Shown here: piece after piece, positions 35,262 to 64,000 of the stretch
How the letters are laid out: each line of letters opens with the position of its first letter
Position numbering within the stretch: the first letter of the stretch is position 1
Origin: a virus
Virus record (IMG/VR): IMGVR_UViG_3300023174_004998
Span: 1 to 64,000 of that record
DNA: 64,000 bases
Direction: 5' to 3' (one strand)
Translations under genes and position numbers: made by a program
Notes under the pieces: model-generated
Database searches by the model: none
Told to the model about the DNA's origin: nothing
Seen by the model: only the letters and a program-made list of their open reading frames with translations

Positions 35262-35290
35262 ATTGTAACAGTTATTTAGATTTTTATCAA
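35262..35290 (-). promoter_or_regulatory. Sigma70 promoter with embedded TAAATA upstream of folE
   Basis: TTGATA-17-TACAAT. Confidence 0.7.
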
Positions 35291-47828: not shown

Positions 47829-48509
47829 TCATGCCCATGCCACCATTTTGAATCTTTCTTGGGGTATGCCAAAGTAATTGCATTTCCAATCACTCTGTGC
47901 AAAGAAATCCAAATGATGCCATTGGTCTTTGTGCTTCAGTATATCTCGACCGGCCTGTTGCCAATTGATACTGTTTATTTTTTGTTCCATCTTTTGTCGA
48001 ACTGCATCCACTTCTACAAAATCAAAACCGTCGTATTCCCAATGTAGAACTTCAAACGCATTGCCTTCACGATCCACCCAGTCTATAGAAAAGTCTAGTC
48101 CCCATTTTGGCCTTAACTGTATGAGCTTGTGGCACAAGGGCATTTGCTCACTCCACTGTAGAAGTTGTTCTCGCGCCCGATCGGCATATCCCTTGCGTTC
48201 AAATAGATAGCTGTGATTCAACACAGCACCTTCTATGCGATGGCCTTGTTCAAACCAAGGTGTCTTGATAGCATGCCGATGTTCTCTATGATTGAAGAAT
48301 TTGGTTTTATTGCAGTTGGCAAATCTCTTTTCCAACGGACAAAGATCAAATCCATTTTGATCAAACAGTGCAAAGTCTTCGACCAATGGCACAAACAGCA
48401 TAGAGTCAGTGGCTGAATGCCAATACCCATCTGGGTCAAACTTATTGTTGGTCAGGCGTAGCATTTCTTGGTGTAGGATACCTAGTGGCACTGGGTCGGG
48501 TGGGATCAT
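47829..48509 (-). CDS. Hypothetical protein
   Basis: FDQNGFDL, ERKGY, PKWGLDFSID. Confidence 0.6.
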   Translation of the reverse strand: MIPPDPVPLGILHQEMLRLTNNKFDPDGYWHSATDSMLFVPLVEDFALFDQNGFDLCPLEKRFANCNKTKFFNHREHRHAIKTPWFEQGHRIEGAVLNHSYLFERKGYADRAREQLLQWSEQMPLCHKLIQLRPKWGLDFSIDWVDREGNAFEVLHWEYDGFDFVEVDAVRQKMEQKINSINWQQAGRDILKHKDQWHHLDFFAQSDWKCNYFGIPQERFKMVAWA

Positions 48510-48975
48510 GCTGATAGTTGCAGGCAGGATTGAGCCAGGCAGTGAGTCGGTCTTCTATGGCCTTGAGTTCTTGTTTCAACTGTGCCTGATTACCGTGTTG
48601 TGCCACAGTGGTTATGGGATAGAAACGTAGTTGTACATCTTTTAAATCATTGATACCATACCCAGCCGCGGCAAATCGATCGGCAAACTGTTTCCAGTTG
48701 TGCATCTGTGCAGCCGAAGTACATTGATCCAATAACTTCTGGATGTGTTTGTGCCAACGTGCTGTGAAGTTGTCAGCGGCGGCAATGCCCACATAGAAGT
48801 AGCCCCAGTCAGGATGTTTCCAAACATAGATGCCCGACTTCTTTGTTTCTGCTGGACGGTCATTGCGCAGACGTATGGTCAAGCCAGGACGGCCTTCTCG
48901 CTGTTTGACCAAGGAATAGATATCGTAGAAATTGTAGGTAACACTACGACCCAATTGTATTTCGTTCAATCTCAT
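48442..48975 (-). CDS. GIY-YIG-like nuclease domain with short MRLNEI leader
   Basis: SGIYVW..FYVG..R..H...E..L...NP.CN. Confidence 0.55.
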   Translation of the reverse strand: MRLNEIQLGRSVTYNFYDIYSLVKQREGRPGLTIRLRNDRPAETKKSGIYVWKHPDWGYFYVGIAAADNFTARWHKHIQKLLDQCTSAAQMHNWKQFADRFAAAGYGINDLKDVQLRFYPITTVAQHGNQAQLKQELKAIEDRLTAWLNPACNYQHDPTRPSATRYPTPRNATPDQQ

Positions 48976-49044: not shown

Positions 49045-49677
49045 TTATCTTCCTGCATTGCGTATGGCTGCACCGTTGTTGAAACTCTGGCTCCAGGAGT
49101 TAGCAGTACGATTACCTTTGCGAGCACTCCACTCGTAGCCTGCACGATGCCCTGAACAGTCTTTGGTGCATTGACTGCCTTTGAACATCAGCTCGTTTAG
49201 CTGTTCTTCTGTAAGACTTTCATCTAGTTCGTCATCCCCAAACTCCATGTGGTCATATGGGCCCCAGGGTTTGCCTGTACGACTATCTAGTTCACCTGAT
49301 TCGTCACCGTGTTCATAGTAGTCATCGCTGTAGATTTCCACACCATCGAATGTGCCATTGTAGCCAATGTTAAACCTGCGTGTGACACCGTCAGGACAAA
49401 CAATGCCACGTTGTAACAATCGTTCTATGTCTTCTTGACTCTTGATACCTTTTTGCAAGTTGCCAGTATCATACACACCGTTGTACCAAGCTGATGCTAG
49501 AGTTCTAAAATAGTCTCCAGAATCACTGCCGCCTCCGGGTGCAAACTCATTTAAGTCTTCGTTCTTCTTGCGACCTTGGCAATGAGCACGTTGGCTGAAA
49601 CCTTTGGGGTTAGAGCAATCTATAGAGCGTTTGTATTTCCGGCTCCATTTTTCTGAGATGAATTCTTCAGCTCTCAT
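49045..49677 (-). CDS. Putative internal head protein, three modules (MRAEEFISE leader)
   Basis: CTS-like leader; modules separated by LNE sites. Confidence 0.65.
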   Translation of the reverse strand: MRAEEFISEKWSRKYKRSIDCSNPKGFSQRAHCQGRKKNEDLNEFAPGGGSDSGDYFRTLASAWYNGVYDTGNLQKGIKSQEDIERLLQRGIVCPDGVTRRFNIGYNGTFDGVEIYSDDYYEHGDESGELDSRTGKPWGPYDHMEFGDDELDESLTEEQLNELMFKGSQCTKDCSGHRAGYEWSARKGNRTANSWSQSFNNGAAIRNAGR

Positions 49678-50081
49678 TTGGTCACCGGTCCACCTTCGAC
49701 CCAAGCATCGCAGGTGCGCTTGGCTGCACACTTAAATTTTAGAAACTTGCAATATCCTAGATCGCCAGCATCTATGGTGTCATGTGGATCTGACCCTGGT
49801 TCACTGCCAATGCCCCTGGCTATACAATCCAGCATGTCAGGACTCATATCAAAGGCCGCACAGTTGCCACAGCGGTTGTTCTTTACTGATTCAATATCGT
49901 TGGTGTTCCAACGGTCGGCCAGTTCAGCCCAGTATTCTTCATTGGGCTCGTTGGGATTTAGCGGACCATAGTGATATTCATCTATGGCCTTTTGACGATT
50001 CTTGAGATTGAGATCAATGCTCTGCGTGGCTGGTGGACAGCCTTTTTCTAGAGCTTCTAACAAGTTGATATAGTTTCTCAT
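49674..50081 (-). CDS. Putative internal protein, Cys-rich (MRNYINLLE leader)
   Basis: CGNC..GYC..C....CDAW, HiPIP-like Cys spacing. Confidence 0.6.
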   Translation of the reverse strand: MRNYINLLEALEKGCPPATQSIDLNLKNRQKAIDEYHYGPLNPNEPNEEYWAELADRWNTNDIESVKNNRCGNCAAFDMSPDMLDCIARGIGSEPGSDPHDTIDAGDLGYCKFLKFKCAAKRTCDAWVEGGPVTK

Positions 50082-50686
50082 TTTGTTGATTTAGCTTCAG
50101 CACGGTCTTGTGCTTTGAGAGGTAAACTTACAGGGTATTGATAACAAGCTTCTGGGTTACCCTGACCAGCTTCGGTCAAGAATGATGTAGCTGCCGGAAC
50201 TTGTCCCGATGGGCATGAACACACAGCAATGCCATCAGCACCTTTGACACAGTTCCAACTGAAACAGTTGCTGGACTTGGCGCCAAGATTCAAACTGGCA
50301 TCACACTTTTGTACAGTGGCTTTTTGTTTCCATGGTAATGAACTAAAGTTGCTGGCTTCTTGTGGGTAAAACAGTTTGGGAGCAAACAAACTCCAAACAT
50401 TTTTATCACTAGTAGGCGCACATGAACCTTTCATATTGCCAGCTGAGGTATCAGCAATAGCATGGCCTTTGAGTATGGGGCAACGGCATTCTACTTCAGG
50501 ATATGGCACACCATTGTTGCCAGTGATCATTTTTGGTGTTCCATCTTTGTTCATGACTGGTTTGCAAGTGCTGGCGGCACACAGCGCATATTCGCCATCA
50601 CAGAGTGTAATACCAGCAGTGGGCAATTGAGCCAACACAGGGGTTGACAGCATTATGAATGCTACTATTGCTAATAATTGTTTCAT
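50078..50686 (-). CDS. Secreted Cys-rich protein
   Basis: Sec signal peptide; about 12 Cys. Confidence 0.65.
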   Translation of the reverse strand: MKQLLAIVAFIMLSTPVLAQLPTAGITLCDGEYALCAASTCKPVMNKDGTPKMITGNNGVPYPEVECRCPILKGHAIADTSAGNMKGSCAPTSDKNVWSLFAPKLFYPQEASNFSSLPWKQKATVQKCDASLNLGAKSSNCFSWNCVKGADGIAVCSCPSGQVPAATSFLTEAGQGNPEACYQYPVSLPLKAQDRAEAKSTK

Positions 50687-50699
50687 TGTTTTCCTTTGA

Positions 50700-50801
50700 T
50701 TAAGTTTTTAATAACTGCTTGAGTTTGTCCAACGCGGCATTGAAGTTCTCTGCTATTATTGTAAATGCTTGTCCTTCTACAGTAAAGTTATATGTTCTCA
50801 T
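50700..50801 (-). CDS. 33 aa peptide MRTYNFTVEGQAFTIIAENFNAALDKLKQLLKT, not in ORF track
   Basis: AAGGAG SD; fills the gap. Confidence 0.5.
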   Translation of the reverse strand: MRTYNFTVEGQAFTIIAENFNAALDKLKQLLKT

Positions 50802-50802
50802 T

Positions 50803-51333
50803 TCATGCTCCTTTGTTTTTGATCCAGTCATCTGGAGTCTTGTTGTGCTTGGCTACAAAACGATCATGTAGCTGTTTGGCAGTTATTTTTGATTTTTTAG
50901 CGATGGACTGCATCATGTGATCAATGGCATCGTAACTGGTGGGATTTTTTAAAACCTTTTCTAAATCCTTGACCTCGTCTTCACGCACCCGGGTAGCTAC
51001 GTTCTTAGCTGGGCCTCGGCGTTCGGGATTGGGATCTTCTCTACGCTTCTTGGCCGCGGCTGATGCACGTTTCTTTTTGCCCAGTGCATAGGCCTTGGAT
51101 CTTGGCAAACACTTGGGTTTACCTTCCGAATCATCGCCACGGGCACAGTCGCCACGAATCTTGCCATCGGGCCCAAAGCGTACCCATTTTTCCTTGAACC
51201 ACTTCTTGAGATCCTCTTCCATTTGCTGTTCGCTCACAGGCACACAGTTAGGCACCATGCGGTCACCTTTTTTCTTCATGCCTGCTTGACGATATCCAGT
51301 CCAGCAAGCTTCGAGGATTTCTTGATATCTCAT
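50803..51333 (-). CDS. Putative internal protein, three basic modules (MRYQEILE leader)
   Basis: ACWTGY..VPNCVP; DLKKWFKEKW..KPKCLP; YDAIDHMM..TPDDWIK. Confidence 0.65.
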   Translation of the reverse strand: MRYQEILEACWTGYRQAGMKKKGDRMVPNCVPVSEQQMEEDLKKWFKEKWVRFGPDGKIRGDCARGDDSEGKPKCLPRSKAYALGKKKRASAAAKKRREDPNPERRGPAKNVATRVREDEVKDLEKVLKNPTSYDAIDHMMQSIAKKSKITAKQLHDRFVAKHNKTPDDWIKNKGA

Positions 51334-54300
51334 TTTTTCTTACCGCCATTGCCCCAGTTGTCAGCACCTTTTTTACGACACTGTACTAAAGCACCTGAAG
51401 CATAGGCACTGGGCCAAACTTTGTAACGTGATTTAACTTTATTGTAGCAAGCGTCTTGTTTTTCATCCAACTGGTCTTCGCCCAGTTCTATGTCACGACG
51501 ATCTTTGGCTCTTTTCTTAGCATAGTCGGTTTGTGGATTCTTTGGTTGACGTGCAACTGGTTTGCCGGCATCTACATCACGTTCACGAGCACGACGCTTT
51601 TGATAATCAGTTTGACCTTCCGCCACACCTTGCTGACTCAGTGCTTGACGTGCTTGTTTCAAGCGCACCAAGGCAGTGCTTTCACCTAACATTGAATCTT
51701 CGTCTTCACGATACACGGCCTTCTTCATGGCCAAGAACTTTTGCAGTGCTGCCAAGTCTTTGGTGTATTTGTCTTTGAGATCTTGGAATTGACGATCTGT
51801 TTCTGGCACAGGATACAGTTCTTCCATTTCAATATCTGCTTGCAGGCCAGGGTAGATACCGCCACGCACATTCTGTGCCTTTAAGAACAGCTTGTCGATC
51901 TGTTCTTTCATCTGGATTAACTCATCCAACAATGCTATGTGACGTCTAAGACTTAGAAATTCTTCATGACGTTGAGTACGTTGAGCATTTGATGGACGAC
52001 CACGACGTGGTCCAGCAGGTGTATTGAGATCAACTGCGGCCGGCGCTGGCTGTGCAGGTTGTTGTAGACTGCGCAACACTGACATGGCCTTGTCATTGAG
52101 TGCTTCTTTGATGTAGCCTTGCTTGATACCAACTTTGAGCAAATCGCCAATACGTTGTTGTATCGCGGCCTTGGCTTCTGGATCACTCATCAGCGCGATG
52201 TCTTTTTGTAGTTCACGCATCACACGCATTTTTTCTGCCCAGTCGCTCACAGTCGTGATGGCATTGTATCCTGAACGATTTAAATCTTCAGTTTCACGTA
52301 TCTTGATACCTTGGCTTTGTGCGCGGCCTTCTAACTCAGCAATCTTCAAACGGATGGCTTCTTTCTCACCAGGAGAAGCATTGGCCATCTGACGGAATAG
52401 TCGATCACGTGCATTTAAAAACTCTTCACGTTGTTTATTGCTACCGCCTGGTGTGGGTTGTGCAATGTTGAACTTGTCCATGCGTTGATTTTCACGTGCG
52501 ATACCAGTCCAGTTAATAGTACCTGTGGGCCAGCGTACACCAATTTCCATGGAAGGATATTTCTTCTTTAGAGCTTGTGCATGAGCAAAGGCTTTGTTGG
52601 AACTGTGGTGCTGTTTGAGATCACTGACAATACCATCCTTGCGACGTACCACACGGAAGTCGCCCACTGGTTCTTCTTCCCCAGCTGATTGTTCTCTGCG
52701 TTTGAAATTTTGTGAAGCCTGCTGACCCGCTTTCCATTGCTGTTCAATGTCTAGGTCTTTGAAACGACCTTCTTCAACATAGTCTTCCTCATCAGCATAG
52801 TCATTGTATTTGACATTGGAAGCATGAAACGCATGTTTACCAAAATTGTAGAGATCCACTATGACAAAGTGCTTGTCACGGCCAAAGCCTGAGACATCAC
52901 CAGTCTTGCCAGCATGCTCTACGTTGCCACCAATGATCACAGGATCACCAATGTGTAATTCTTCATTGCTTTCGTTCATACCAACTGCTTTGCCAAAATC
53001 TCCCATGTCTACTCCTTGCAGTGCGGCTGCCATTGGGTCCACTGCGGCATCTGATTTTTTCTTTCGAGCACGACTGATAGGAATCACTTTTCCATCATCC
53101 TTGGGTATTTCCACATACGGTGGTGCCTGTATCACAGTTGGTTCAGCGATTTTCTTGGGAGCGGTTTTCTTGGGAGCGGCTTTCTTACGAACTGCTGGTT
53201 TCTTTTTCTTCTCAGGAGCAGGCTGTGCCACGTCTGTTGGTTGTTGCTGTGGTTGAGTAGCAACTTCTGGTTCTGCGGGTTTCTCTGCGGCCTTTGGTTG
53301 TGTTGCTTGCGGTTCTTCAGGTTTCACAGCAGGCTTGGCCGGAACTTCAGGAGCAGTTTTGGCTACCACTGGTTCTGGTTGTTGTTTGAGTTGTTGTATT
53401 TCTTGATCTTGTTGTTGCACCACAGCGGCCAACTGTTGCATCTGTTGATCTTGAGAATCGTTGTCTTTGCGTAGTTGATCAATTTCAGCTTGTGCGGCCT
53501 GCGATTTTTCTAATTCGTCCTGTACAAAGGCTTCAATGTCACTGCCGGCCGCACTTTGACGAGCACGGGCCAGCTGGAAAGCTCTGGCCACTCGGGGATT
53601 TACCATGCTCTTACGATCTAATTCTGTTATTTCAGAATTTTTTTTTTGAGCTTCAGCTTCTTTGATTTTGGGAGTGCCCATGCCAGGCAGATCCATCTGG
53701 CCTGGAGGAACAGGTTCTGTGCCTGGTGCAACATAGGCAGGAACTTTCTTAGGCATCATACCTTTGGCACGCAATTTGTCAATGTAGTCAACCATGGCCA
53801 ACTTGTCACCAAATGTATTAAGAATGATGTTGACTTTTTGCTGTGGCTTCATACGGCCAAAGTCTTTTAATATAGCATAGATCTGCGAACGATAAAGAGT
53901 AAGAGGGCGATCGCCAGCAAATTCGAATTCACTGTAGGGCTTGTTTTCCATGTAGTCTTTGATCATGCGTTCCCAATTGATCTTGCCTGCTGTTTGTGTA
54001 GTAGGACGATCTGGATTGGCCATGGCGATCTCTTCTACAGCTTGATCTTCTTCCATCTGTCCGGGCATGGTATCACCTGTGACACCACGTTCGCCAGGAA
54101 TACTACCTTGGAAATTCTTTTGTTTGTCAATGAGTTGACGCAGTTGTTTCATGTGCTGATCAAACTTCACAGGATCTGCAAGATGATTCAAGAACTCTTC
54201 CTGACGACCTGCTTTGTTAAATGCTTTGTACTTGGCAAATATCCAACGTGTTTCCATTGGATCTAGAGTGATTGTTTCACCGCCAATGTTGAGTACAGCA

Positions 54301-54386
54301 TCCTGTCCTGATTGGGAGGCCTGCATCAAGGCTCGTAAATTATCGTAGCCTGTGGTAGTATCTTCGATCAAGTTCAGTAAATTCAT
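51330..54386 (-). CDS. Large modular putative internal polyprotein, 1018 aa (MNLLNLIE leader)
   Basis: Modules bounded by MEE/IKE/MNE/VEE/IRE/LGE/VAE/LDE; KOW-like module; C-terminal KQDACY..WPSAYASG. Confidence 0.7.
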   Translation of the reverse strand: MNLLNLIEDTTTGYDNLRALMQASQSGQDAVLNIGGETITLDPMETRWIFAKYKAFNKAGRQEEFLNHLADPVKFDQHMKQLRQLIDKQKNFQGSIPGERGVTGDTMPGQMEEDQAVEEIAMANPDRPTTQTAGKINWERMIKDYMENKPYSEFEFAGDRPLTLYRSQIYAILKDFGRMKPQQKVNIILNTFGDKLAMVDYIDKLRAKGMMPKKVPAYVAPGTEPVPPGQMDLPGMGTPKIKEAEAQKKNSEITELDRKSMVNPRVARAFQLARARQSAAGSDIEAFVQDELEKSQAAQAEIDQLRKDNDSQDQQMQQLAAVVQQQDQEIQQLKQQPEPVVAKTAPEVPAKPAVKPEEPQATQPKAAEKPAEPEVATQPQQQPTDVAQPAPEKKKKPAVRKKAAPKKTAPKKIAEPTVIQAPPYVEIPKDDGKVIPISRARKKKSDAAVDPMAAALQGVDMGDFGKAVGMNESNEELHIGDPVIIGGNVEHAGKTGDVSGFGRDKHFVIVDLYNFGKHAFHASNVKYNDYADEEDYVEEGRFKDLDIEQQWKAGQQASQNFKRREQSAGEEEPVGDFRVVRRKDGIVSDLKQHHSSNKAFAHAQALKKKYPSMEIGVRWPTGTINWTGIARENQRMDKFNIAQPTPGGSNKQREEFLNARDRLFRQMANASPGEKEAIRLKIAELEGRAQSQGIKIRETEDLNRSGYNAITTVSDWAEKMRVMRELQKDIALMSDPEAKAAIQQRIGDLLKVGIKQGYIKEALNDKAMSVLRSLQQPAQPAPAAVDLNTPAGPRRGRPSNAQRTQRHEEFLSLRRHIALLDELIQMKEQIDKLFLKAQNVRGGIYPGLQADIEMEELYPVPETDRQFQDLKDKYTKDLAALQKFLAMKKAVYREDEDSMLGESTALVRLKQARQALSQQGVAEGQTDYQKRRARERDVDAGKPVARQPKNPQTDYAKKRAKDRRDIELGEDQLDEKQDACYNKVKSRYKVWPSAYASGALVQCRKKGADNWGNGGKKK

Positions 54387-55204
54387 TATTGTTCTTCCAA
54401 GTAATCTTCGTTTTGTGTTGTACGCATACGACGTCTGTTGAGATACATCTCACAGGCCATCACAGCATGATCCAGGCTTTCAAACTTTGCTGAATGCGGT
54501 TTATTCTTTATGGTAATACGGAAACCATCATCTTCGTTTCCGTGTATCTTGATTTCTTTACCATCATCAGTGACGATGGTTTTCACAGCAGAAGTGATCT
54601 TGTCAATGTCCTGCGGTACTTTGTCTTTGAGATCAGAGTCTGATTTGATTTCTTTTGATAGATCAGATAGATAGTCGCCCAGTTTCTTTTTTACAGTGGA
54701 GATGACATCCTCAGTGGCCTTGGCTTCCGACAAACTTGAACCGGCCAGTATTTGTTCAACACTGCGCACATAGGCTGATACATCACTGCTGCCAATTTCG
54801 TCTACATCGCCCACAAACTCAGCAACATCACGTGCGGCATCCATCACTGCCTGTGGACCATAACGGCCCAACAAACTGGTGTGTTGCATCATGATACGAT
54901 GCAAGATAGCACGTTCTACTGGGTTGTCATTATCTTCGCTTTCCAAAAATGATTTGGTATCTGGATCCACACCATCAGGAGTCTCATCTGCTCCAGTGTC
55001 ACCTACTTCGCTACCCCAACCTGTTTCGTCCCCTTCGCCAACCAAATAACCTTGTGTGGCGTTCTTGCCAGGATATGGGCCTGACAACTGTGGTGACGTG
55101 TTACGAGGCTTAAACAACGCAGGTAATTGCTTGACGCTTTTTTGTGCGGCGTCAATGCTTTCTATGCGATTGAACGATTCAAGTATCTTGCGTAGGTCTG
55201 CCAT
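54386..55204 (-). CDS. Putative internal protein (MADLRKILE leader)
   Basis: Modules after LVGE, FLE, LSE. Confidence 0.6.
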   Translation of the reverse strand: MADLRKILESFNRIESIDAAQKSVKQLPALFKPRNTSPQLSGPYPGKNATQGYLVGEGDETGWGSEVGDTGADETPDGVDPDTKSFLESEDNDNPVERAILHRIMMQHTSLLGRYGPQAVMDAARDVAEFVGDVDEIGSSDVSAYVRSVEQILAGSSLSEAKATEDVISTVKKKLGDYLSDLSKEIKSDSDLKDKVPQDIDKITSAVKTIVTDDGKEIKIHGNEDDGFRITIKNKPHSAKFESLDHAVMACEMYLNRRRMRTTQNEDYLEEQ

Positions 55205-55206
55205 GA

Positions 55207-55647
55207 TTATGCTCTTGCGTCTTTTAAGAAACTCTTGAGTTGCCATGCATACTTGCCATGACTGTCTTGACGTTCTGCCATGAAGTTGGCAATGTCCTCA
55301 CGTCCTTCGGCCTGTGCGACTTGAAATACTTGCATCACAATGCTCTTCATTGTTTCTGTATCTGCCAATAATTCTTCTAACATTAGTCGAGCACGTGGAA
55401 TCTTTGTCTGTCCAGGAATTTGACTGAGTTCATTGAAACGCTCTAGGCTGCCTGGTGCATAGTCTTCCAAGGTGCGAATGTACTCAGCAATCTTGTCTAC
55501 AGCACCATATGCATCTGCATAGATTTCAGCAAAAAATTCGTGCAATTGAGCAAAGTCTGGACCTTCCACATTCCAGTGGAACATCTGTGCTTTTAAGTAA
55601 TAAGCAAAATTACTGGCTAATAGAGTTTTCAAATCGTCTGACAGCAT
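55207..55647 (-). CDS. dps: Dps-family ferritin-like protein
   Basis: HWNVEG..F..LHEFF, VD.IAE.IR, H.K..WQL. Confidence 0.9.
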   Translation of the reverse strand: MLSDDLKTLLASNFAYYLKAQMFHWNVEGPDFAQLHEFFAEIYADAYGAVDKIAEYIRTLEDYAPGSLERFNELSQIPGQTKIPRARLMLEELLADTETMKSIVMQVFQVAQAEGREDIANFMAERQDSHGKYAWQLKSFLKDARA

Positions 55648-55792
55648 TGGGTTTCTTCTTTCTAGAATTCTTTTTATATTTATCCGCAGGCACTATAGGC
55701 TGGGTTCTTGACAACACAGCACCCATGGGCATGGCAACAGTGGCTATGCCGCCGCTAACCGTGGTTTCTGCTATAAATTCATGCGCTCTCAT
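55610..55792 (-). CDS. Small putative internal protein (MRAHEFIAE leader)
   Basis: Last five leader residues (EFIAE) match T4 IPII/IPIII MKTYQEFIAE. Confidence 0.6.
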   Translation of the reverse strand: MRAHEFIAETTVSGGIATVAMPMGAVLSRTQPIVPADKYKKNSRKKKPNAVRRFENSISQ

Positions 55793-56078
55793 TGACGATC
55801 TCAAAGGTTTTTGAGTCAATGACTTGTGCAGGGCCATTGGATACTTTTAAGTTGCGTATTTTAAATTGACAGTCTGGATCGCCAAGATTATCTACTCTTA
55901 TAGTGTATTTTCCTGGTGGCGCATCTAGAGATATATTTTCTTCAAGATACTGTGTACCGCCCCAGATATAGGTACGCTCTGTGAATAGCTCATGATTCAC
56001 ATATAATCGATAAACTGGGGGCACCTTTTTCCAATCACAAAAAAGGTCTAGGTTTACTTTTACAAAATGTTTACGCAT
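55779..56078 (-). CDS. Hypothetical beta-rich protein (start MRKHF)
   Basis: TAAATA 5 nt upstream. Confidence 0.6.
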   Translation of the reverse strand: MRKHFVKVNLDLFCDWKKVPPVYRLYVNHELFTERTYIWGGTQYLEENISLDAPPGKYTIRVDNLGDPDCQFKIRNLKVSNGPAQVIDSKTFEIVNESA

Positions 56079-56106
56079 ACAGATATTTACCGCATGCGTA
56101 ATTGTG

Positions 56107-56847
56107 TCATTTATGAAAGTTGTCGTACCAGCTGGCTTGCCTACTGAGTTGTATACCACGTTGGCGTTCAGCTTTGTTGCCTGATTTTTTCATTTTGTTG
56201 GCTTTGGCTCGCAGGCGCTTTAGATCTGTTTGACTTAACTTTTCTCCAGAACCCTTGCCCAAATAGGCAGCGGCTTTGCGTTTGATGCTACCTGGGCGGC
56301 TACCGGGCTTGGCAGCTCCGGTAAAATCTTCCACGGTATTGAGATAGGATACAAGTGTTTCGTTCATGCCAGACTCCTGAAAAATAGGACCTTGAACAGT
56401 GTTACCACGCTGTCCAACAATGACTTGATTAAGGTGTTGTGCCCATTCTGGATTTGCATCAAAATGGCGTCGACGTAGTCCCAAAGGAAATAAATGTACT
56501 TCCACAGGATCGTCACCTTCGCTTTGCAGTATGGCCATCATTCTATGGCGGCCATCATGCCCAACTACTCTAGCTGGTTTAGATAAATTGTTTGATTCCC
56601 AGCCCTCGGGTATGTCTATTTCCAAGAACGGTGCGCCAATGCCTTCTGTATCTTTGTGTTGTTTGACATATTCTACAGCTTCTTGATCTTGTGGAGTATT
56701 GGGCATGGGCAATGCCAACTTTAAGAAAGTACTGGGACGCATGGCTACTCGCAGTCCAAAGTAGTCAATTTCTTGATTCTTGGGAACACTACCAATGCCT
56801 GATTGGTTGTTGATCTTGTATTCGTCAATAAACTCGTGGGATCTCAT
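56107..56847 (-). CDS. Putative internal protein: ParB/Srx-like domain plus basic module (MRSHEFIDE leader)
   Basis: VVGHDGRHR motif. Confidence 0.65.
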   Translation of the reverse strand: MRSHEFIDEYKINNQSGIGSVPKNQEIDYFGLRVAMRPSTFLKLALPMPNTPQDQEAVEYVKQHKDTEGIGAPFLEIDIPEGWESNNLSKPARVVGHDGRHRMMAILQSEGDDPVEVHLFPLGLRRRHFDANPEWAQHLNQVIVGQRGNTVQGPIFQESGMNETLVSYLNTVEDFTGAAKPGSRPGSIKRKAAAYLGKGSGEKLSQTDLKRLRAKANKMKKSGNKAERQRGIQLSRQASWYDNFHK

Positions 56848-57164
56848 TAGCGCACCCGTAACACAGGATTGCGCCCGTGGTAGTTTTCGTTGTGATACAC
56901 AGTATTCAACAACAGCTTGTTGGGATCAAAGGCCGACCTCATCATGCCAAGATGTATGTTGTGGTGACTGTCAAAAACATTGAACTGTGTGTTAGGTTCC
57001 AACTCTTTGATGTGTCTGCGAGCACGATCTAATCTGTTGAGTATGCCTACGATTATGGGCATAGAGATTCCACGCTTTTCAGCACGATTGTCCAAGTGCG
57101 GACTCACACGTATGCGGAATCCACCTGCGTTGAGATCTTCAGTGACAAATTCTTGAGCTTTCAA
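56847..57164 (-). CDS. Putative internal protein, possible RNase-toxin-like fold (MKAQEFVTE leader)
   Basis: SPH..RA..RGI..LNTVY; TTG start. Confidence 0.55.
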   Translation of the reverse strand: MKAQEFVTEDLNAGGFRIRVSPHLDNRAEKRGISMPIIVGILNRLDRARRHIKELEPNTQFNVFDSHHNIHLGMMRSAFDPNKLLLNTVYHNENYHGRNPVLRVR

Positions 57165-57343
57165 CGCACTCTCCTGATGGCACCAATGTGATGATCTTCT
57201 ATACCATACTGTGCTTTCAATAACTGGCGTGCTTCTGCTTGATTGTGAGCATACACTGACACTTCAATCCTACCTGTGTAGTTGGGATTGCTGATGGTAA
57301 TTTTAGCCAACCAACGGTGTCCTGTGAGTTCTTTTGCTCGCAT
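57161..57343 (-). CDS. Small protein with MRAKEL leader
   Basis: TAAGTA 7 nt upstream. Confidence 0.55.
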   Translation of the reverse strand: MRAKELTGHRWLAKITISNPNYTGRIEVSVYAHNQAEARQLLKAQYGIEDHHIGAIRRVR

Positions 57344-57356
57344 AATGTATTACTTA

Positions 57357-58247
57357 TTAGTTTGTCTCAAAGTTCTTTTGAACGCGATATGTTTCGTCCG
57401 GGAACTTGGCCAAGTAAGCGTCAATCATGTGATCGAAACTACTGCCAAATCTGGCTTTCAAACTTTTCAAGCTCACTGCCTGATCTTTTTCGTTCATGAA
57501 CTGACCTGTTTGTTCGTTGTTGATGATATAGTCTTCACCACGATCGTGATATATTTCCAAATAATCACTGTCATTGTACACAGGCAGATCGCCAATGCTG
57601 TAGTCAAACCACAGCTGATACTTTTCACCTGGATGTTGAGGTTGTTGCGGTACAACTATCAGCAGGGGTGTGTTTTCAGCATAGTTGTTGAAATAGTTCT
57701 TGCCTTTGGTTGCCGCTGTACACCAGCGTGTGCCTTGCCCATAGTAACAGGCCGCGGCTTGATCGTAGGGCATGATCACTCGAACTTGCTGATCCTGATA
57801 TATTTCTTCAGCCTGTCCTTTGTCTTTTAACTCAGGTGCTTCGGGATCTGGATATTCATCCATCACACTCATGAAGTCACCAAAGTTACTGTAGCCCAAG
57901 ATATCATTTCTGGGTGCTGGTATTTTTTTTCTGCGAGTTAATACATAGAACTTTTCCAAATATTCACGCACCTGTGTGAGTACATCTTCAAGAAATGTTT
58001 CACCTTTGATGTAGGTACGAGCCAACCAAGGCATGTACTGTTTGTTGGGTGAAGGGTCTGCCAGTTCCAACATGCGGATCAAAGCTTCTATAGTATCATC
58101 GTCGCTGTCTTGTGGGCCAAGATCACGACCCAGTACTCTGCGTATGCGGCCCGGCCCTTCTCTACGGAATGTGTTCAGCACTTGAGTTCCCAGGCGTTGC
58201 TTGGTTATGTCACGGCTGTATTCTAATAGGAATTCCTGGGCTCTCAT
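57357..58247 (-). CDS. Putative internal protein, PcfJ-like (MRAQEFLLE leader)
   Basis: ADP..NKQY..WL; AACYYG.GTRWCTA..F..Y. Confidence 0.6.
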   Translation of the reverse strand: MRAQEFLLEYSRDITKQRLGTQVLNTFRREGPGRIRRVLGRDLGPQDSDDDTIEALIRMLELADPSPNKQYMPWLARTYIKGETFLEDVLTQVREYLEKFYVLTRRKKIPAPRNDILGYSNFGDFMSVMDEYPDPEAPELKDKGQAEEIYQDQQVRVIMPYDQAAACYYGQGTRWCTAATKGKNYFNNYAENTPLLIVVPQQPQHPGEKYQLWFDYSIGDLPVYNDSDYLEIYHDRGEDYIINNEQTGQFMNEKDQAVSLKSLKARFGSSFDHMIDAYLAKFPDETYRVQKNFETN

Positions 58248-58444
58248 TTCTTTCGCCCCGATTTCATATTGGCACACCAATGGTACATCTTGGCACGTTC
58301 GCCAGAAGCATTTTTAGCACGTCGACGTAGATCAGTTACACTGCCCGAGCAACTGGCACCTGCACGTTTTACACGGCCTGGGCGACTTTTTCCTTTGACC
58401 CGACCGTCGGCAAAGTTTTCCGTTACAAATTCATGTGCTCTCAT
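58244..58444 (-). CDS. Small basic putative internal protein (MRAHEFVTE leader)
   Basis: CTS-like leader plus K/R-rich module. Confidence 0.65.
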   Translation of the reverse strand: MRAHEFVTENFADGRVKGKSRPGRVKRAGASCSGSVTDLRRRAKNASGERAKMYHWCANMKSGRKK

Positions 58445-59217
58445 AAACTAAAAGGATCCATTATAACTAAATGACCATCGCTTCTACGGCGCAGGTTTTC
58501 TATGTTGCTCAAATCTAACGGTGCATGACCGCCCAAGGCGTCAATGAGATCTTCAGTGGCCATGAGCAACCCTTGGACTTCGTCGTCATCCAACTCAGGA
58601 GGCATTGGGTTATTCTGTTGATAAGCATCAGCATATCCACGTGCCGCCGCGTTCATCAAATCTTCAAGGTATTCCAATGTGGCTTCTTCATTGGCCACAT
58701 AGTCCAGATATTCCATTTCATACACAAAATAAGTTTCACCGTTGAGAGAGAATTCACCTGTGTTGTAGATACGAGGATAGTAGGGATTGCGCTGATTGCG
58801 TAGGAAAAACGCTACATAATCTCGAACAATCTTTTCACGTTCAGGATCACCAATGCCCAGCACTTTGACCACTGTGTTCCTAGGACTGACAAATGCCATC
58901 TGATCGCGGCCTTCGCCAGCAAACTGATACCCACGTTTGAAAAAGTAGTCTTCAATGTGTTGGCTGACTGTGAGTTCGTCATCAGCGTTGATTTCTGTAA
59001 GTCCTTTTTTCTTGGCAAAGTCAATTTGACGCAACATGGCATTGATGTCTACTGGATCACGCCCACGTACTTTTAAATCTGTTTCTAAGTCCTGTGGTGA
59101 TGGATCATCTTTTCTCAGCATGCCTGGGTGGCGAGCAAGACTGGGCCTTTTAGTAGTAGGCGGCACAATGGGGGTGACAGGAGTTATGACTTCAGTTACA
59201 AACTCTTGGGCTCTCAT
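58441..59217 (-). CDS. Putative internal protein with protein-kinase-like domain (MRAQEFVTE leader)
   Basis: GEGRDQMAF, VVKV, P.IY, MEYL, DL...EN, LVIMDP. Confidence 0.6.
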   Translation of the reverse strand: MRAQEFVTEVITPVTPIVPPTTKRPSLARHPGMLRKDDPSPQDLETDLKVRGRDPVDINAMLRQIDFAKKKGLTEINADDELTVSQHIEDYFFKRGYQFAGEGRDQMAFVSPRNTVVKVLGIGDPEREKIVRDYVAFFLRNQRNPYYPRIYNTGEFSLNGETYFVYEMEYLDYVANEEATLEYLEDLMNAAARGYADAYQQNNPMPPELDDDEVQGLLMATEDLIDALGGHAPLDLSNIENLRRRSDGHLVIMDPFSL

Positions 59218-59807
59218 GATCCCATCCACCGTGCTATCATTGTGGTGCGAGCACTTGAATACACACCAGTGCCACGTCGAGTGCTACGCATGCTTCGGCT
59301 ACCAGGTTCTACAGGAAATGTAAAACGAGTCCAAGTTTTGTTTTGATCTACTACGTTGTCTCCAGGCCGTGGACGATATTCTGGAGTGCGTTCCATGGTA
59401 TAGCCTTTGACTTCTACTCCTGGTATGGAGTTTAACATAAGCCACATGGCTTGTCCGTGCTTGGTTTGTGTGTCTCCAGCTTCCAATGTAAGTTTGAGTA
59501 TGTTGAGAGCAATACCATACAGAGCCTTGCCCAATCCTCGACCACGATAGTCAGGATCTGTGGCCACAGTTTCCACTTGCCAGGTTTTCAATGGATCAAG
59601 AGTTGCGCCAAGATCCAGTTCCGCAACCAGGGTGTCACCGTCAAAGATCATGATTTCCATAAATTCAGGATCTTTTTTGTTTACAGCATAGGTATAGCCA
59701 CTGCCGCCTGGCAAAGGTTTTTTCTTTATTTTATAGTCAGGTTGTCTCAATGTGTCTTTGTCACCAAAGTCACCTTGTGGTATGCGGGCTATTTCGTAAA
59801 ATCTCAT
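59214..59807 (-). CDS. GNAT acetyltransferase (MRFYEI leader)
   Basis: V..DPDYRGRGLGKALY, QT..G..MW. Confidence 0.75.
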   Translation of the reverse strand: MRFYEIARIPQGDFGDKDTLRQPDYKIKKKPLPGGSGYTYAVNKKDPEFMEIMIFDGDTLVAELDLGATLDPLKTWQVETVATDPDYRGRGLGKALYGIALNILKLTLEAGDTQTKHGQAMWLMLNSIPGVEVKGYTMERTPEYRPRPGDNVVDQNKTWTRFTFPVEPGSRSMRSTRRGTGVYSSARTTMIARWMGS

Positions 59808-62800
59808 ATCATCACCGGTAATACATCCAAGGCACCAGAGTAGTTGTTTTCTCTGGCCCACATTGATGCTATCCTGTTGGCATCACCTTGATTGTTGCCC
59901 GCTCCACTGAATCTATACAGTTCACGGCCAGCACCATCTACAACTTGCCACTGCCCAGAAAATTGATTACCAAATGGTGCACCACTGGATTGAGGGAAGT
60001 TTTGTGCAACATCTGGTTCAATGTCTTGCACATGGCGTCGAAGCTCTGCAGACCAATCACCTATTCCTCCTGCAGGTTGCGGTTCACCTATTCTAGCTTT
60101 TAAATCTCGAGAGTCTTGAGCATTGTCTGCGGCTCGCTTGACATCCTGTGGTTGAATTTCTAAATCGTCAGCATTCTCAAAGTCGTGAAGTACAGCCACT
60201 CGGGCTAATAGTTTTTGTGCTTGATCTTGATCAACACGCAGTATACTATCAATCACACGACCTGTGGGTTTGTAAACAACATCCCAATTGCTTTTTTGTT
60301 TGGGTTCTTTGATGCGCTTGGCCATTTGAGCGCGAGCACTTAACTTTTTCTCTGGCTCAGGAGTGTTGTCGGGTCTGCGATATACCTCGTAATCGTCAGA
60401 AAGTCGATCTCCGTATTCGGCCTGGACCTTTTCTTTGGCACGATCAATGTCACCAGCTCTAACAGTCAGTATGATGTCACCGTAGCTATCCATGACATCA
60501 AACCAAGGTTGTTTTAACCGCACATCCAACTGACGTGGGTCGTTGCTGTATTTTCTGGTATATTGATCGTATGCAGTATCGTAGTCACGAGCATAAAATG
60601 TATCAATGATTCCATCAGGACTATTTTTATTAGCCATGTCGTAGACTTCGTATTCTTGTTTGCCAGTGGTAGGTATTTCTTTTTGTAGTACAGTATCAGC
60701 CCACTGTTTCTTGAGTTGTTCTTTGTCAATGGTACCTGCTGAGTATTCAGAAAACAGTTTCAGTGCGTCATTCTGCGCACCTGGTGATATTAACTTGTAG
60801 AGTTTTTTAGCATACTCTCGGCGCTCAAGATCTGGACGGCTGGCAATGTACATGGCACGAGCAAAACGCAACATGGTATCTTTGATATCGTCCCATTCGC
60901 CACGACTCTCCATGGAGAGATAATCGCCACCCGGTGATCGGAATTCAATATAGCCATCCTGTATGTGCGCCGATGTGTATTTGCTAGTACCCACACCTTG
61001 CTGAACATAACGAGCAGCCAACTCAATGAGATTCTTCTGTACTAACTCCAATGCGCCCATTGGATCTGTTTTGGCTTCTGTGAGGTCGCCACGATTTCTA
61101 GCACCCTGTATGTTTTGTTTGAGTTTGCCCATGGCCGAAGCCGCATAGGTATTCGAAGCACGACCAAACTTGTCCAGTATGTACTCGTCACCCATGAACA
61201 GCACTAATTTAACATAGTCAACATCTCCGCCCACATAGGGTATAGATATGCCCATGTGCAGGCCTGTGCTGGAGTTGGTGTAGGCATCAGCTTCGTTTTG
61301 TGCCCACTCTATTACGTCTTTGAGCTTGTCAATGGTTTCCAACAATGGCATAGGTGGACTAACAATTTCCAGCCCCATGTCGTCGCCGTCATCAGGATCT
61401 AAACTACCGTCGGGTTCAATGATCCAGCGACCTTCTTTGCGTGTGGTTGAGTGATAGTTTCCGCTGACTTTGACTTCCATGCCCACCGCTTGTTGAAGAC
61501 TATCGCCAATTTCACTCCAGTCACGGTCTCCACCTCCGGATCCACCTCCGGTCCAGTAAGGCCAGTCAAGAGTATTTGAGTTGGCAATATCGCTCATGTA
61601 ACCATAGCGATCGCGCAAGAAATCACGCTCATCGTAGTCACCTGAGTCTCGCATCATTTCAAAATAGTATTCGCGAGCATTGTCATAGTATTCGCCTTGG
61701 CTCTCTACTTCACTAATGACTTCAGTTTCAAAATCTTCATGTGCGGCATCTGAGGCTTCTTGATACTTTTGATACAATTCGTTTTGTTTGGCATAAGCTG
61801 TTTGATCACTGCTTCTTGTAAATCTTGGTGCATCCTCGCCAGCTTGTAATATTGCTTGTGAATCATCGTCGGGAAACAGTTCATCTATTTTGTCAGCAAT
61901 GCGTTTTTCACGTTCTTCGTCATCACTCCAGACATTGGTTTCCATGTAGTCTCGGACTTGATCTTCAGCGTTTTCGCTCCAAGACTCTGCAATTTGTTCA
62001 TCTGCCCATTCAACAAATTCTTCAAAAAGTGTGTCGCGCAGATCTCGAGCACCGCGACCACTTAGACCATAACCCCAGTCATCGTTGGAAAAGAAGTCTA
62101 TGACATGATCAATATCGTCTGCACGTTCATCATAGTCATAGTCCGGCTCCATATCACCTTCGTCATCGTCACGCTTGGTATCACGGAAGATCAATTCAGC
62201 TTCAAAGCCAGCACGTATGCCTTGTGCTTCAGGACTACGAGCCCAGGCTTCCAAGGTGCCGGTGTTCATCCTTACTTCGTTTATGGGTTCAAATTCGCCA
62301 GACTCTTTGAATTCTTTCAGGGCATTGGCCAAGTTCTTCATCAACAAGTCAGGACGACCTTGACTGTCTGTTTGCAAGCCTAATTTATTGGCTTCCTTGC
62401 CCAACTGTCCAGGTTTGATGTCCACTGTGAGTGCTGTTTTAAATCTTGGATCTCGGGCCTGTTTCTTTGTGGGAATATAACCTGATGCATTTTCACGCAC
62501 AGGTGCAGGACCTTGTATCACAACCACAGCACGGAACTGACCACCTAGGTCATCGGCTTCATGTTCTACAGGGCGCCATTCGCCTATGGAAATAGGACCA
62601 TATCTTCGGTTAGCGTCTGCGTAAGCGGCGTTGAGTGCGGCTTGATAAGCGTCTTCACGTGTACGTCCAATGCCGTTGGCTGCCACACGTTCACCTTGTG
62701 CTTGTGGTCCACCCCAGATGCGTTTTCCACCCACACGTATTTCTTGATTGCCACGTGCTAGATCTCTTGCTATGCCTTTTAATTCTTCTTCGGCTCCTGC

Positions 62801-64000
62801 CTTGGTAAAGGTCTTGGGAGCATTGTATATCACACGCCCTAGATCATACGCAGGGCTCTGTGCTTTGGCAGCAGGCGATCCCAGGGCCATGGCTCCAGCC
62901 ACAGCGGCAGTGCCCAGAGCTTTGCCTAGGCCTTCGTCTAGATCATCCAATCTCCGTTGCCATTCTATTTCTTCTGGTGTACGAGGATCTTTCCAGTCGG
63001 GATTTTTTGTCAAATCCTGTAGTTCATAGGTATTAGCGCCCATTGGAACCAAGCCCAGGTACTGATGACTGTTGGGGGCCAAAAACGTTTGATCACTGCG
63101 CCAGCCACCTTGTTCCATGCCTTTGGCAGTTTTATACCAGGGTCGCCAACTATACTTAAACCTGACCAGGTTGCGTCCATCAATAATCTGTTGAGAAACA
63201 ACCTGTCTGAGCACTGCCTGTGTGCGGTATTGAGTATTTTGCTCTCTATCAGCCCAGGGATACCATACAATCTTGGCCTTTTTCTTCAACAAGGCACGTA
63301 TCTGATCCCCCAAGGGATTGTGCAAGTCTGCTTCAGTGCGTTTTCTGGGATGCCAGCTATCATCGTCGTCTTCGTCCTCCCAACGATCGCCATCATTTTT
63401 TGGTGGCTTGATCGGAGGTGATATTGATCCACCGCCTGGAGCAAATTCGGACAAGTTCTGTTGACGATACATCTGATACATTTTTACATAGTCTTGTTCT
63501 TGTCGAGTCAACGGACGACCTAATTTGACCTTAGCAATTATGAATCGATAGTATTGTTCAGCATCGCGATCTTTACTGACAGGAGTGGCAATAGTCTCAC
63601 CCACGTTGTAGGTAGGATCAGTCTTTTGTCGTGGCATACCTGCGGGCTGGTTGGGATCCACAGGGTCAATGTCTGTAGTATCAAGTCCTAATCTTTTTAA
63701 ATGGTCGATATACTTGTGTTCGGTATTTTCATCACCAAAACTTACAATGGTACTAGGTGGCCCTTTACCAAACTCGCTGGGGTCAACTTGATCTAGATTG
63801 GCAATGTGTTTGCCAAGTTTATACCAGTCGTACACATCTGAAACATCCACACGCACTGTGCCTCGGGGCATGGTGGGTTTGAATTCTGGGCCAGGCGGAG
63901 TCTGATCACCATATTGTGCGGCCACGCTGTCACCATCTTCGCTCACAGTGCTGGCAAAGAACTCAGGATATTTGTTTTGAAAATGGCGCATGATAATACC
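59804..64000 (-). CDS. Very large polyvalent protein (5' end outside window) containing a putative amidoligase (COOH-NH2 ligase) domain
   Basis: GFEAEL, IEPDGSL, GLEIVSP, TNSSTGLHM.IS, YIEFRSPGG; modules bounded by LSE/LDE/VRE/INE; frame open to the window edge. Confidence 0.75.
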   Translation of the reverse strand, partial: GIIMRHFQNKYPEFFASTVSEDGDSVAAQYGDQTPPGPEFKPTMPRGTVRVDVSDVYDWYKLGKHIANLDQVDPSEFGKGPPSTIVSFGDENTEHKYIDHLKRLGLDTTDIDPVDPNQPAGMPRQKTDPTYNVGETIATPVSKDRDAEQYYRFIIAKVKLGRPLTRQEQDYVKMYQMYRQQNLSEFAPGGGSISPPIKPPKNDGDRWEDEDDDDSWHPRKRTEADLHNPLGDQIRALLKKKAKIVWYPWADREQNTQYRTQAVLRQVVSQQIIDGRNLVRFKYSWRPWYKTAKGMEQGGWRSDQTFLAPNSHQYLGLVPMGANTYELQDLTKNPDWKDPRTPEEIEWQRRLDDLDEGLGKALGTAAVAGAMALGSPAAKAQSPAYDLGRVIYNAPKTFTKAGAEEELKGIARDLARGNQEIRVGGKRIWGGPQAQGERVAANGIGRTREDAYQAALNAAYADANRRYGPISIGEWRPVEHEADDLGGQFRAVVVIQGPAPVRENASGYIPTKKQARDPRFKTALTVDIKPGQLGKEANKLGLQTDSQGRPDLLMKNLANALKEFKESGEFEPINEVRMNTGTLEAWARSPEAQGIRAGFEAELIFRDTKRDDDEGDMEPDYDYDERADDIDHVIDFFSNDDWGYGLSGRGARDLRDTLFEEFVEWADEQIAESWSENAEDQVRDYMETNVWSDDEEREKRIADKIDELFPDDDSQAILQAGEDAPRFTRSSDQTAYAKQNELYQKYQEASDAAHEDFETEVISEVESQGEYYDNAREYYFEMMRDSGDYDERDFLRDRYGYMSDIANSNTLDWPYWTGGGSGGGDRDWSEIGDSLQQAVGMEVKVSGNYHSTTRKEGRWIIEPDGSLDPDDGDDMGLEIVSPPMPLLETIDKLKDVIEWAQNEADAYTNSSTGLHMGISIPYVGGDVDYVKLVLFMGDEYILDKFGRASNTYAASAMGKLKQNIQGARNRGDLTEAKTDPMGALELVQKNLIELAARYVQQGVGTSKYTSAHIQDGYIEFRSPGGDYLSMESRGEWDDIKDTMLRFARAMYIASRPDLERREYAKKLYKLISPGAQNDALKLFSEYSAGTIDKEQLKKQWADTVLQKEIPTTGKQEYEVYDMANKNSPDGIIDTFYARDYDTAYDQYTRKYSNDPRQLDVRLKQPWFDVMDSYGDIILTVRAGDIDRAKEKVQAEYGDRLSDDYEVYRRPDNTPEPEKKLSARAQMAKRIKEPKQKSNWDVVYKPTGRVIDSILRVDQDQAQKLLARVAVLHDFENADDLEIQPQDVKRAADNAQDSRDLKARIGEPQPAGGIGDWSAELRRHVQDIEPDVAQNFPQSSGAPFGNQFSGQWQVVDGAGRELYRFSGAGNNQGDANRIASMWARENNYSGALDVLPVMI

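Follow-up and report, generated by a model that had tools for sequence, protein, structure and literature searches.

The window analysed here is a stretch of 64,000 nucleotides, positions 1 to 64,000 of one 96,550-bp IMG/VR contig (IMGVR_UViG_3300023174_004998) that is estimated to be 26% complete. Our subject is a tightly packed run of genes that descends from position 65197 to 49045; like all genes of the contig, these lie on the minus strand. Several products of this array are chains of small modules joined by short peptides that end in hydrophobic-x-Glu, and the leaders at the N-termini of array products end in the same way. We consider it probable that the 49-65 kb region encodes precursors of internal head proteins, the joints of which would be cut by an S77-family head protease once the leader has directed their loading. 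What we observe is the set of leaders and modules, the reuse of these modules, joints in strict register that are conserved at the level of the peptide, and the protease gene in a close relative (G001).

The source of the contig is an uncultured jumbo phage of the T4 superfamily. Its family-B DNA polymerase (44670-47330) finds its closest matches in T4-superfamily jumbo phages, with identities of 50% to Sinorhizobium phage Phosso, 47% to Agrobacterium phage Atu_ph07 and 42% to Rak2/121Q-like phages. The comparison set consisted of about 100 related phage loci (labelled L004, L043 and so on), the window contig, and G001, a genome of 343.6 kb and 99% completeness whose array proteins are 62-90% identical to those of the window. 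These relatives are essential to what follows: an all-vs-all BLASTP search inside the contig revealed hardly any shared modules, and reuse is visible only against relatives.

Targeting, cleavage and retention in the head are what we infer, as follows. By analogy with the T4 capsid-targeting sequence (CTS), a leader of 5-9 residues with a hydrophobic-x-Glu end would bring the product into the prohead's scaffolding core. A number of products would travel as chains, in which small basic modules, mostly with two Cys, and some enzymes are separated by short acidic joints ending in (L>I,M,V)-x-E. A gp21-type (Peptidase S77) prohead protease would cut after every accessible joint Glu and set the basic modules and enzymes free within the head, and the leader and acidic spacer peptides could exit, like T4 propeptides. 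As each module would bring or meet a joint, its insertion, loss or exchange should be harmless to its neighbours, and the cassette-like variation among relatives would thereby be explained.

Joint motif and leaders

As marks of a polyprotein we took a protease-type motif at the borders of units, and units that also occur independently. The original prediction, made from the window alone, held that modules in the large open reading frames (ORFs) start right after (L/I/V/M)-x-E sites and are reused. To define module starts by the leader and not by eye, we collected the 30 residues after each leader, in all reading frames of the comparison set, and then sought the resulting 54 distinct tags at sites without a preceding leader (the register of the tag for module D was corrected by one residue). 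Among 144 non-redundant internal module starts, 136 (94%) carried [LIVMF]-x-E at positions -3 to -1, against a background of 1.86% of positions, so that the claimed register was borne out and the sites lie at module boundaries more often than chance would give. After grouping by upstream sequence, the motif was present in 53 of 61 distinct contexts; the corresponding binomial probability of about 5e-83 is overstated, since some dependence remains among the contexts, yet the effect is very strong. Other registers gave 0-3%, with the exceptions of -5 (40%, due to a further site, for example VSE↓QELEE↓, where the arrow here and below marks the predicted cut point after a joint or leader Glu) and +8 (32%, an F-K-E within module B). 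Distances from high-scoring segment pair boundaries to the sites were too imprecise for the two large ORFs and were dropped in favour of direct alignments.

In the usual notation the motif reads hydrophobic (P3), x (P2), Glu (P1). Over 131 distinct joint DNAs, P3 was Leu in 68%, Ile in 12%, Met in 11% and Val in 8%, so that these four residues account for 99% of joints, and P2 was E, A, D, N or K. The joints carry a charge of -2 to -5, except for TRVRE (+1). Modules A, B, C, D, K and N and the ParB-like unit start at the identical residue whether they follow a leader or an internal joint. A single negative control is available in the Roseobacter podophage CRP-7, which encodes a bare module D (MATTKTKKDACY...) with neither leader nor motif, so that the motif does not belong to the domain itself.

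Eight window products between 49 and 59 kb begin with the leader MRAxEF(I/V/L)xE or the shorter MRYQEILE, a pattern that occurs nowhere else in the 96.5-kb contig. The codons of the leader vary (GCT/GCG/GCA/GCC, CAA/CAT/CAC/CAG, TTC/TTT and others), and it is therefore the peptide that is conserved. Shorter variants that likewise end in hydrophobic-x-Glu are MNLLNLIE (1018-aa ORF), MDIYE (1798-aa ORF), MRNYINLLE (49674-50081) and MADLRKILE (from aa 15 of 54386-55246). The T4 CTS, MKTYQEFIAE, is removed by one cut of the head protease (PMC8442874) and is enough to load foreign proteins into the head (PMC8442874, PMC9026906). The window leaders resemble it, for example MRAHEFIAE (55610-55792), and in cyanophages Bellamy (gp122) and SynMITS9220M01 a stand-alone K module of 39-51 aa starts with MK(S/T)FKQFQE↓, which is nearly the T4 leader itself.

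The starts of the array genes mostly overlap the preceding stop as ATGA. Between 49045 and 59217 most genes start with ATGAGA, with the TGA of the preceding gene inside, and a clear ribosome-binding site is absent; these genes look translationally coupled. Loss of one stop would join neighbouring genes into a chain, in which the leader would become an internal joint.

Modules and their exchange among relatives

Independently occurring units were found throughout: A, B, C, D, K, N and P each stand alone or recombined in relatives or cyanophages. One chain is the 176-aa product of ORF 50803 (50803-51333), which had been read as three modules joined at MEE and VRE, and so it proved. Its leader MRYQEILE↓ (51310-51333) is followed by module A (51235-51309), the joint SEQQMEE↓ (51214-51234), module B (50995-51213), the joint TRVRE↓ (50980-50994) and module C (50806-50979). 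PHROG profiles match aa 8-52, 41-126 and 121-174 separately, and in tblastn searches of cultured phages the three parts also match separately, in T4-like cyanomyoviruses; the two kinds of search together cover aa 3-52, 39-126 and 118-174. E8 and E40 are invariant in 33 homologs. The relatives of this protein retain A and B and swap the third module; elsewhere, module B stands directly behind the leader in L119, module C also does so, and module D alone behind a leader forms a 53-aa protein.

An AlphaFold2 (AF2) model of the ORF 50803 product, of limited quality (33 sequences, mean confidence score (pLDDT) 65.7), likewise comprises three separate units. Module A is a hairpin (aa 14-32), module B a small fold with a disordered basic tail (pLDDT<50 at 88-97 and 108-115), and module C a confident helical bundle (aa 118-172, pLDDT about 80). 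One of the two joints agrees with the expectation that xE sites would fall in disordered linkers: VRE118↓D119 lies at the linker-domain border, between the disordered stretch 108-115 and the helical module C.

The 210-aa chain at 49045-49677 (ATG at 49677) consists of the leader MRAEEFISE↓ (49651-49677), module K (49564-49650; two Cys), the joint NEDLNE↓ (49546-49563), an acidic middle cassette of charge -14 (49213-49545), the joint TEEQLNE↓ (49192-49212) and module T (49048-49191). Throughout this family the layout is leader, K, L-x-E↓, a middle part, QLDE↓ and T, with five unrelated middle cassettes, or none, between the two joints. The proposed match between this chain and the largest ORF was confirmed, with DLNE↓FAPGGGS at aa 41-51 of the former and NLSE↓FAPGGGS at 63422-63454 (aa 582-592) of the latter. 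In relatives, L-x-E↓FAP with a stretch rich in Gly, Ser and Asp is found behind no fewer than eight distinct upstream sequences. This element is a recurring joint with the start of a linker, rather than a folded module.

The 1018-aa chain (51330-54386) starts with MNLLNLIE↓D. Its internal QTDY-K-basic repeats, QTDYQKRRARERD from aa 925 (51573-51614) and QTDYAKKRAKDRRD from aa 952 (51498-51542), are present as described, next to QGVAE↓ (51618-51632), and so is its end, QLDE↓KQDACY. This end is formed by a double joint, IELGE↓DQLDE↓ (51462-51497), and module D (KQDACY..., 51333-51461; two Cys); PHROG 727, 3477 and 38880 match only aa 919-1017. In L004 and L100 this family has insertions that start after GVAE↓ and finish with a new (V/M)AE↓, L043 is without about 230 residues (aa ~528-758), and G001 ends in module A where the window has D.

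The largest chain, of 1798 aa, starts at 65197 outside the window with MDIYE↓L, and its window part spans 59804-64000. It strings together a nucleotidyltransferase-like N-terminus, a Lys/Gly-rich linker, a zincin-like HELTH unit, more modules, an Ala-rich hydrophobic stretch and an amidoligase unit (61244-61510; Amidoligase_2, PF12224, E 1.8e-7, aa 828-916 of the window-internal ORF). Residues 1 to ~423 are retained in the family and the remainder is exchanged; homology to distant relatives ends at TVSE↓D, and these relatives close such a chain with a zinc-ribbon and module D. A module of ~105 aa in the window and L090 sits exactly between (V/L)PE↓ and VNE↓. It is absent in L096, L102 and L105, and relatives without it read VVPE↓DVNE↓.

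The 246-aa chain at 56107-56847 has the leader MRSHEFIDE↓ (56821-56847), a ParB-like unit with a DGRHR motif (aa 10-160), the joint ...LNTVE↓ (56329-56367) and the basic tail module P (56110-56328). Its mature start, YKINNQ, follows the leader in the window; in L004 it follows KFTE↓, behind an extra 155-aa module, and in G001 it follows KINE↓, behind a 64-aa module. Module P is absent from the G001 homolog, yet has its own 98-codon frame elsewhere in G001. The neighbouring 66-aa protein (58244-58444) carries the leader MRAHEFVTE↓ and the 57-aa basic module N (NFADG...HWCANMKSGRKK; two Cys), which in relatives forms the C-terminus of five different proteins, after AVEE↓, SIAE↓, DMEE↓, PVSE↓ and GMAE↓. 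The tail P and the 58244-58444 protein had been presented as matching modules. They are alike in following V-E or T-E, in their charge of +14 and in being movable; their homology is marginal, with 41% identity over 51 aa in BLASTP (E 0.018 in a 140-protein database) and a non-significant hhalign comparison of the two families (probability 3.7%, E 0.012, 20 columns).

Chains of 500-620 aa, with up to six small modules, occur in L108 (3797-5638), L114 (4001-5521) and L099 (2576-4438). They contain more recurring units, each behind a Glu joint, namely a CPECGG zinc-ribbon before module D, and AQQAAIAIAMKK-GKKP. The window's small modules are also strung together in the cyanophage 'gp114' proteins of S-CAM9 and S-RIM8, where the consensus is WS-KYK-SI-C-NPKGFSQ-AHC-GRK for K, L--WF...PKC with a basic tail for B, KDACY-KVKSRY-VWPSAYASGALV-CRK for D and CW-GY...VPNC for A. 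Among cultured cyanomyoviruses, chain genes are present in S-SM1, Syn9, S-PM2, S-RIM8, S-CAM9 and S-P4.

Each small module carries a net charge between +4 and +14, and in most of them there are exactly two Cys (K is +9 in 29 aa, B +13 in 73, D +9 in 43, N +14 in 57, P +14 in 73 and T +6 in 48). Basic cargo is what T4-type internal head proteins would lead one to expect, the T4 internal proteins (IPs) being 'highly basic' (PMC8442874). The original prediction took the products to be many small effectors. We find this doubtful: the strongly basic character of the small modules, and their conservation in jumbo phages of lakes as well as in marine cyanomyoviruses, make them look more akin to internal head proteins that associate with DNA than to effectors that change rapidly. 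Before any cut, the acidic joints may keep the basic modules masked, and by comparison with T4 Alt it is plausible that the enzyme units (nucleotidyltransferase-like, zincin-like, amidoligase, GNAT, ParB-like) are ejected cargo.

Head proteins of the lineage and rival readings

G001 encodes a gp21-type Peptidase S77 (285330-285953; PF03420, E 1.2e-27) amid genes for the portal, an acidic core protein, the scaffold and a Gp23-family capsid protein. This capsid protein (287077-288279) reads YLKE↓NASAGSTVSGNIATL, an L-K-E motif, just before its conserved N-arm, which we take, judging from what is known of T4 gp23, to be the expected T4-type maturation position. Between portal and protease lies an acidic protein of 279 aa (284473-285312, plus strand) that begins with MNKFEQLIE↓Y and contains four or five copies of EELDE↓AKDEE; this protein is probably a gp67/gp68-like core protein and a natural multi-site substrate of the protease. 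In T4, gp21 cuts Alt at ITE-6 and LTE-619, and gp22, gp67 and gp68 at many sites (PMC5694885). Evidence from virions comes from a homolog of the 57357-58247 protein in Pseudomonas phage PA5oct (EST35_0205), which lies in a run of proteins annotated as structural by electrospray ionization tandem mass spectrometry (ESI-MS/MS), and from a chain protein of cyanophage S-P4 that is annotated as 'T4-like structural protein, T4-GC0119', an annotation whose underlying proteomic entry we could not trace; T4-GC119 was not found in the supplements of Sullivan et al. 2010 (PMC3037559).

The 55610-55792 protein of the array (MRAHEFIAE↓TTVSGGIATVAMP..., 60 aa, charge +8) and its relatives (VVE↓NASAGATSSGSVATV..., for example L123 738-2234) resemble the N-arm that follows the predicted cut of the G001 capsid protein, and the PA5oct structural protein EST35_0203 carries KVEE↓TASAGASSAGGIASV. 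Judged by this resemblance, proteins of this type may be capsid N-arm mimics carried as cargo.

The idea of polyproteins cut by the head protease, as originally put forward, thus gains reusable modules, motif-bearing joints and a gp21-family protease in the lineage, with cleavage itself predicted from these features. Several observations weigh against it. Peptidase_S77 had no match on the 26%-complete, 96.5-kb fragment, and the cut specificity ascribed to the S77 protease of this lineage is carried over from T4. The T4 IPs are cut once only (PMC8442874), so that multi-cargo chains are without direct T4 precedent. The motif is not enriched in the region overall (1.86% of positions vs 1.71% in the rest of the contig), and many copies fall inside larger domains, so that not every site can be cut. 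One G001 joint, TKSE↓DPCW, is without the motif, and in cyanophage chains P3 is often Phe or non-hydrophobic (VQME↓G, VTNE↓A and TQNE↓S in S-P4). Finally, MEE40↓D41 of ORF 50803 lies within a low-confidence predicted helix, and the AF2 model of the 49045 protein (mean pLDDT 43.7) is too poor to place sites, with both joints in stretches below 50 that are little informative.

Some of these observations would suit chains that are never cut, in which joints of the (E)(E)Q-L-D-E type act as acidic spacer helices or N-caps that separate basic modules, their likeness to the leaders being a by-product. The predicted helix of the first ORF 50803 joint runs into module B, uniformly acidic joints between basic modules would also serve to balance charge, and motif copies occur inside folded domains too. 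A spacer requires no fixed register, however, yet in 94% of cases the module is directly preceded by the Glu, vs 0-3% in neighbouring registers, and a free P2 between a hydrophobic P3 and a Glu P1 is what protease sites look like. Behind a removable N-terminal leader, the module has its first residue unchanged, the motif is common to the expected maturation site of the capsid protein and to the core protein, and the bare module D of the non-T4-like CRP-7 does without it. We regard uncut chains as unlikely, although they are the main rival. Cutting outside the capsid is more improbable still; here the leader would reflect, for example, a constraint of the start region or of translational coupling, or some other address, and another Glu-specific protease, of host or phage, would act in the cytoplasm. 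The overlap of most starts with the prior stop as ATGA shows coupling and fixes Met-Arg (ATG AGA). Head genes are absent from the 26%-complete, 96.5-kb fragment, and the array adjoins replication genes (the DNA polymerase at 44670-47330) rather than a head cluster; in G001 the array occupies 127-144 kb, and the head genes are clustered at 282-288 kb. Coupling covers only the first two codons, though, whereas the remaining E-F-hydrophobic-x-E persists although its codons vary, and it matches the T4 CTS, homologs in PA5oct and S-P4 are annotated as virion proteins, and the T4 IP genes likewise lie outside the T4 head cluster.

We also considered the joint as a DNA-level recombination signal, a microhomology that serves cassette exchange and encodes a peptide without a function of its own. 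Exchange does take place exactly at the joints, and for other phage mosaics it has been proposed that boundary sequences mark the points of exchange. But the 131 distinct joint DNAs use all six Leu codons as well as Ile, Met and Val, 23 instances of LDE show 10 different spellings, P2 may be E, A, D, N or K, and at most the GAA codon is conserved. This diversity points to selection on the peptide, not on the DNA, and on these grounds we rejected the microhomology reading as very improbable. Processing by the head protease thus remains the account that we favour.

The remaining array and comparison with known systems

Pfam families in the region are few. A Dps/ferritin-like protein (55207-55647; PF00210, E 1.6e-20) stands without a leader within the array and is kept there in 46 related loci. 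The GNAT acetyltransferase gene (59214-59807; PF00583, E 8e-6) starts with MRFYEI, a degenerate leader, and in L085 a GNAT unit lies within a 514-aa chain. Besides these there is the amidoligase unit of the largest chain and, just outside the array, a GIY-YIG protein (48442-48975) that starts with MRLNEIQLG, a degenerate leader form, and could be a homing-type nuclease bordering a variable region. The small modules matched no Pfam family, and the only other matches were a weak DUF5872, and DUF6321 in cyanophages. The T4 late promoter (TATAAATA) has one match in the window and none in the array, which provides no argument about expression timing.

The other leader-bearing products are a 258-aa protein (58441-59217, MRAQEFVTE↓V), a 296-aa protein (57357-58247, MRAQEFLLE↓Y) and a 105-aa protein (56847-57164) with a TTG start and the leader (M)KAQEFVTE↓D, whose G001 homolog starts MRATEFVAE↓. 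A 60-aa protein (57161-57343) has the degenerate start MRAKEL. Relatives of the 286-aa protein at 54386-55246 align from its aa 15, where this protein reads MADLRKILE↓S, and the 135-aa Cys-rich protein at 49674-50081, which starts MRNYINLLE↓A, shows 88-96% identity in 43 loci. A further Cys-rich protein in mid-array (50078-50686, 202 aa) has a classical signal peptide (MKQLLAIVAFIMLSTPVLAQ) and neither leader nor family match. ORF 55779-56159, also within the array, is kept in 19 loci and shares 30% identity over 71 aa (E 2e-4 within the contig) with ORF 35287-35865, 20 kb away. Three paralogous ORFs of 369-487 aa are scattered over the contig (window 12412-13578 and 24959-26422, contig 74749-75858; mutual E 2e-25 to 3e-5).

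Taken further, the exchange of modules at fixed joints suggests that the head-protease site acts as a universal plug-in joint, such that any cassette between two (L/I/M/V)-x-E joints behind a leader would be packaged and released separately. We hold this tentatively, at slightly less than an even chance. If it were true, cassette shuffling in true polyproteins would be the way in which T4-superfamily phages of lakes and oceans, the abundant cyanomyoviruses among them, evolve head cargo that is injected or bound to DNA. To our knowledge, polyprotein-type gene expression has not been described for tailed phages, and we found no paper on such chains that joins polyproteins, the prohead protease and jumbo phages or ejection proteins. 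Should the joints be cut, tailed phages would make capsid cargo by a polyprotein strategy, and long 'hypothetical' ORFs of jumbo phages and cyanomyoviruses should be annotated as several products. A very common, unexplained structural gene of cyanophages (T4-GC0119) would be accounted for, mature internal head proteins could be predicted from sequence by rule, and there would be a natural multi-cargo counterpart of T4 CTS packaging, which is already in use for protein delivery.

The nearest known system is that of T4 IPI, IPII, IPIII and Alt, with which the array shares the leader pattern with its hydrophobic-x-Glu end, highly basic cargo, an S77 protease in the lineage and variable, non-core cargo genes; Alt, in addition, is an enzyme carried in the head and trimmed at both ends. 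The T4 IPs have one cargo and one cut, whereas the window chains have several modules behind one leader, a predicted site at each joint and cassette exchange. The T4 core proteins gp22, gp67 and gp68 are cut by gp21 at many sites into short peptides, and the EELDE of the G001 core protein is the joint motif of the chains; these core proteins are degraded and expelled, whereas the window modules are conserved, folded or basic, and seemingly meant to persist.

Inner-body and ejection proteins of phiKZ, 201phi2-1 and SPN3US are also from jumbo phages. Many of the head proteins of these phages undergo several cuts, each after a Glu, and their propeptide sites are redundant (PMC5694885, PMC9026906). 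Their sites are (S/A/G)-x-E or A-x-E and their protease is S80, and the extra cuts chiefly remove propeptides, whereas the window joints are flanked on both sides by conserved modules. Membership in this group was rejected, given L/I/M/V at P3 in nearly all joints and an S77 protease in the lineage. The cyanophage 'gp114'/T4-GC0119 proteins share modules K, B, D and A, in varying order and mostly after x-x-Glu. They differ in lying between the small terminase and tail or head genes, in having no MRAxEF leader at their start, in a P3 that is often Phe or non-hydrophobic, and in a C-terminal DUF6321 module that is absent from the window. With the polyproteins of picornaviruses and flaviviruses, to which there is no homology, the chains have in common one frame for several products, short border sites and the use of the virus's own protease. 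In contrast to those, the proposed cutting would take place inside an assembling capsid, it would yield cargo and not replication proteins, and the set of sites would be open to new cassettes.

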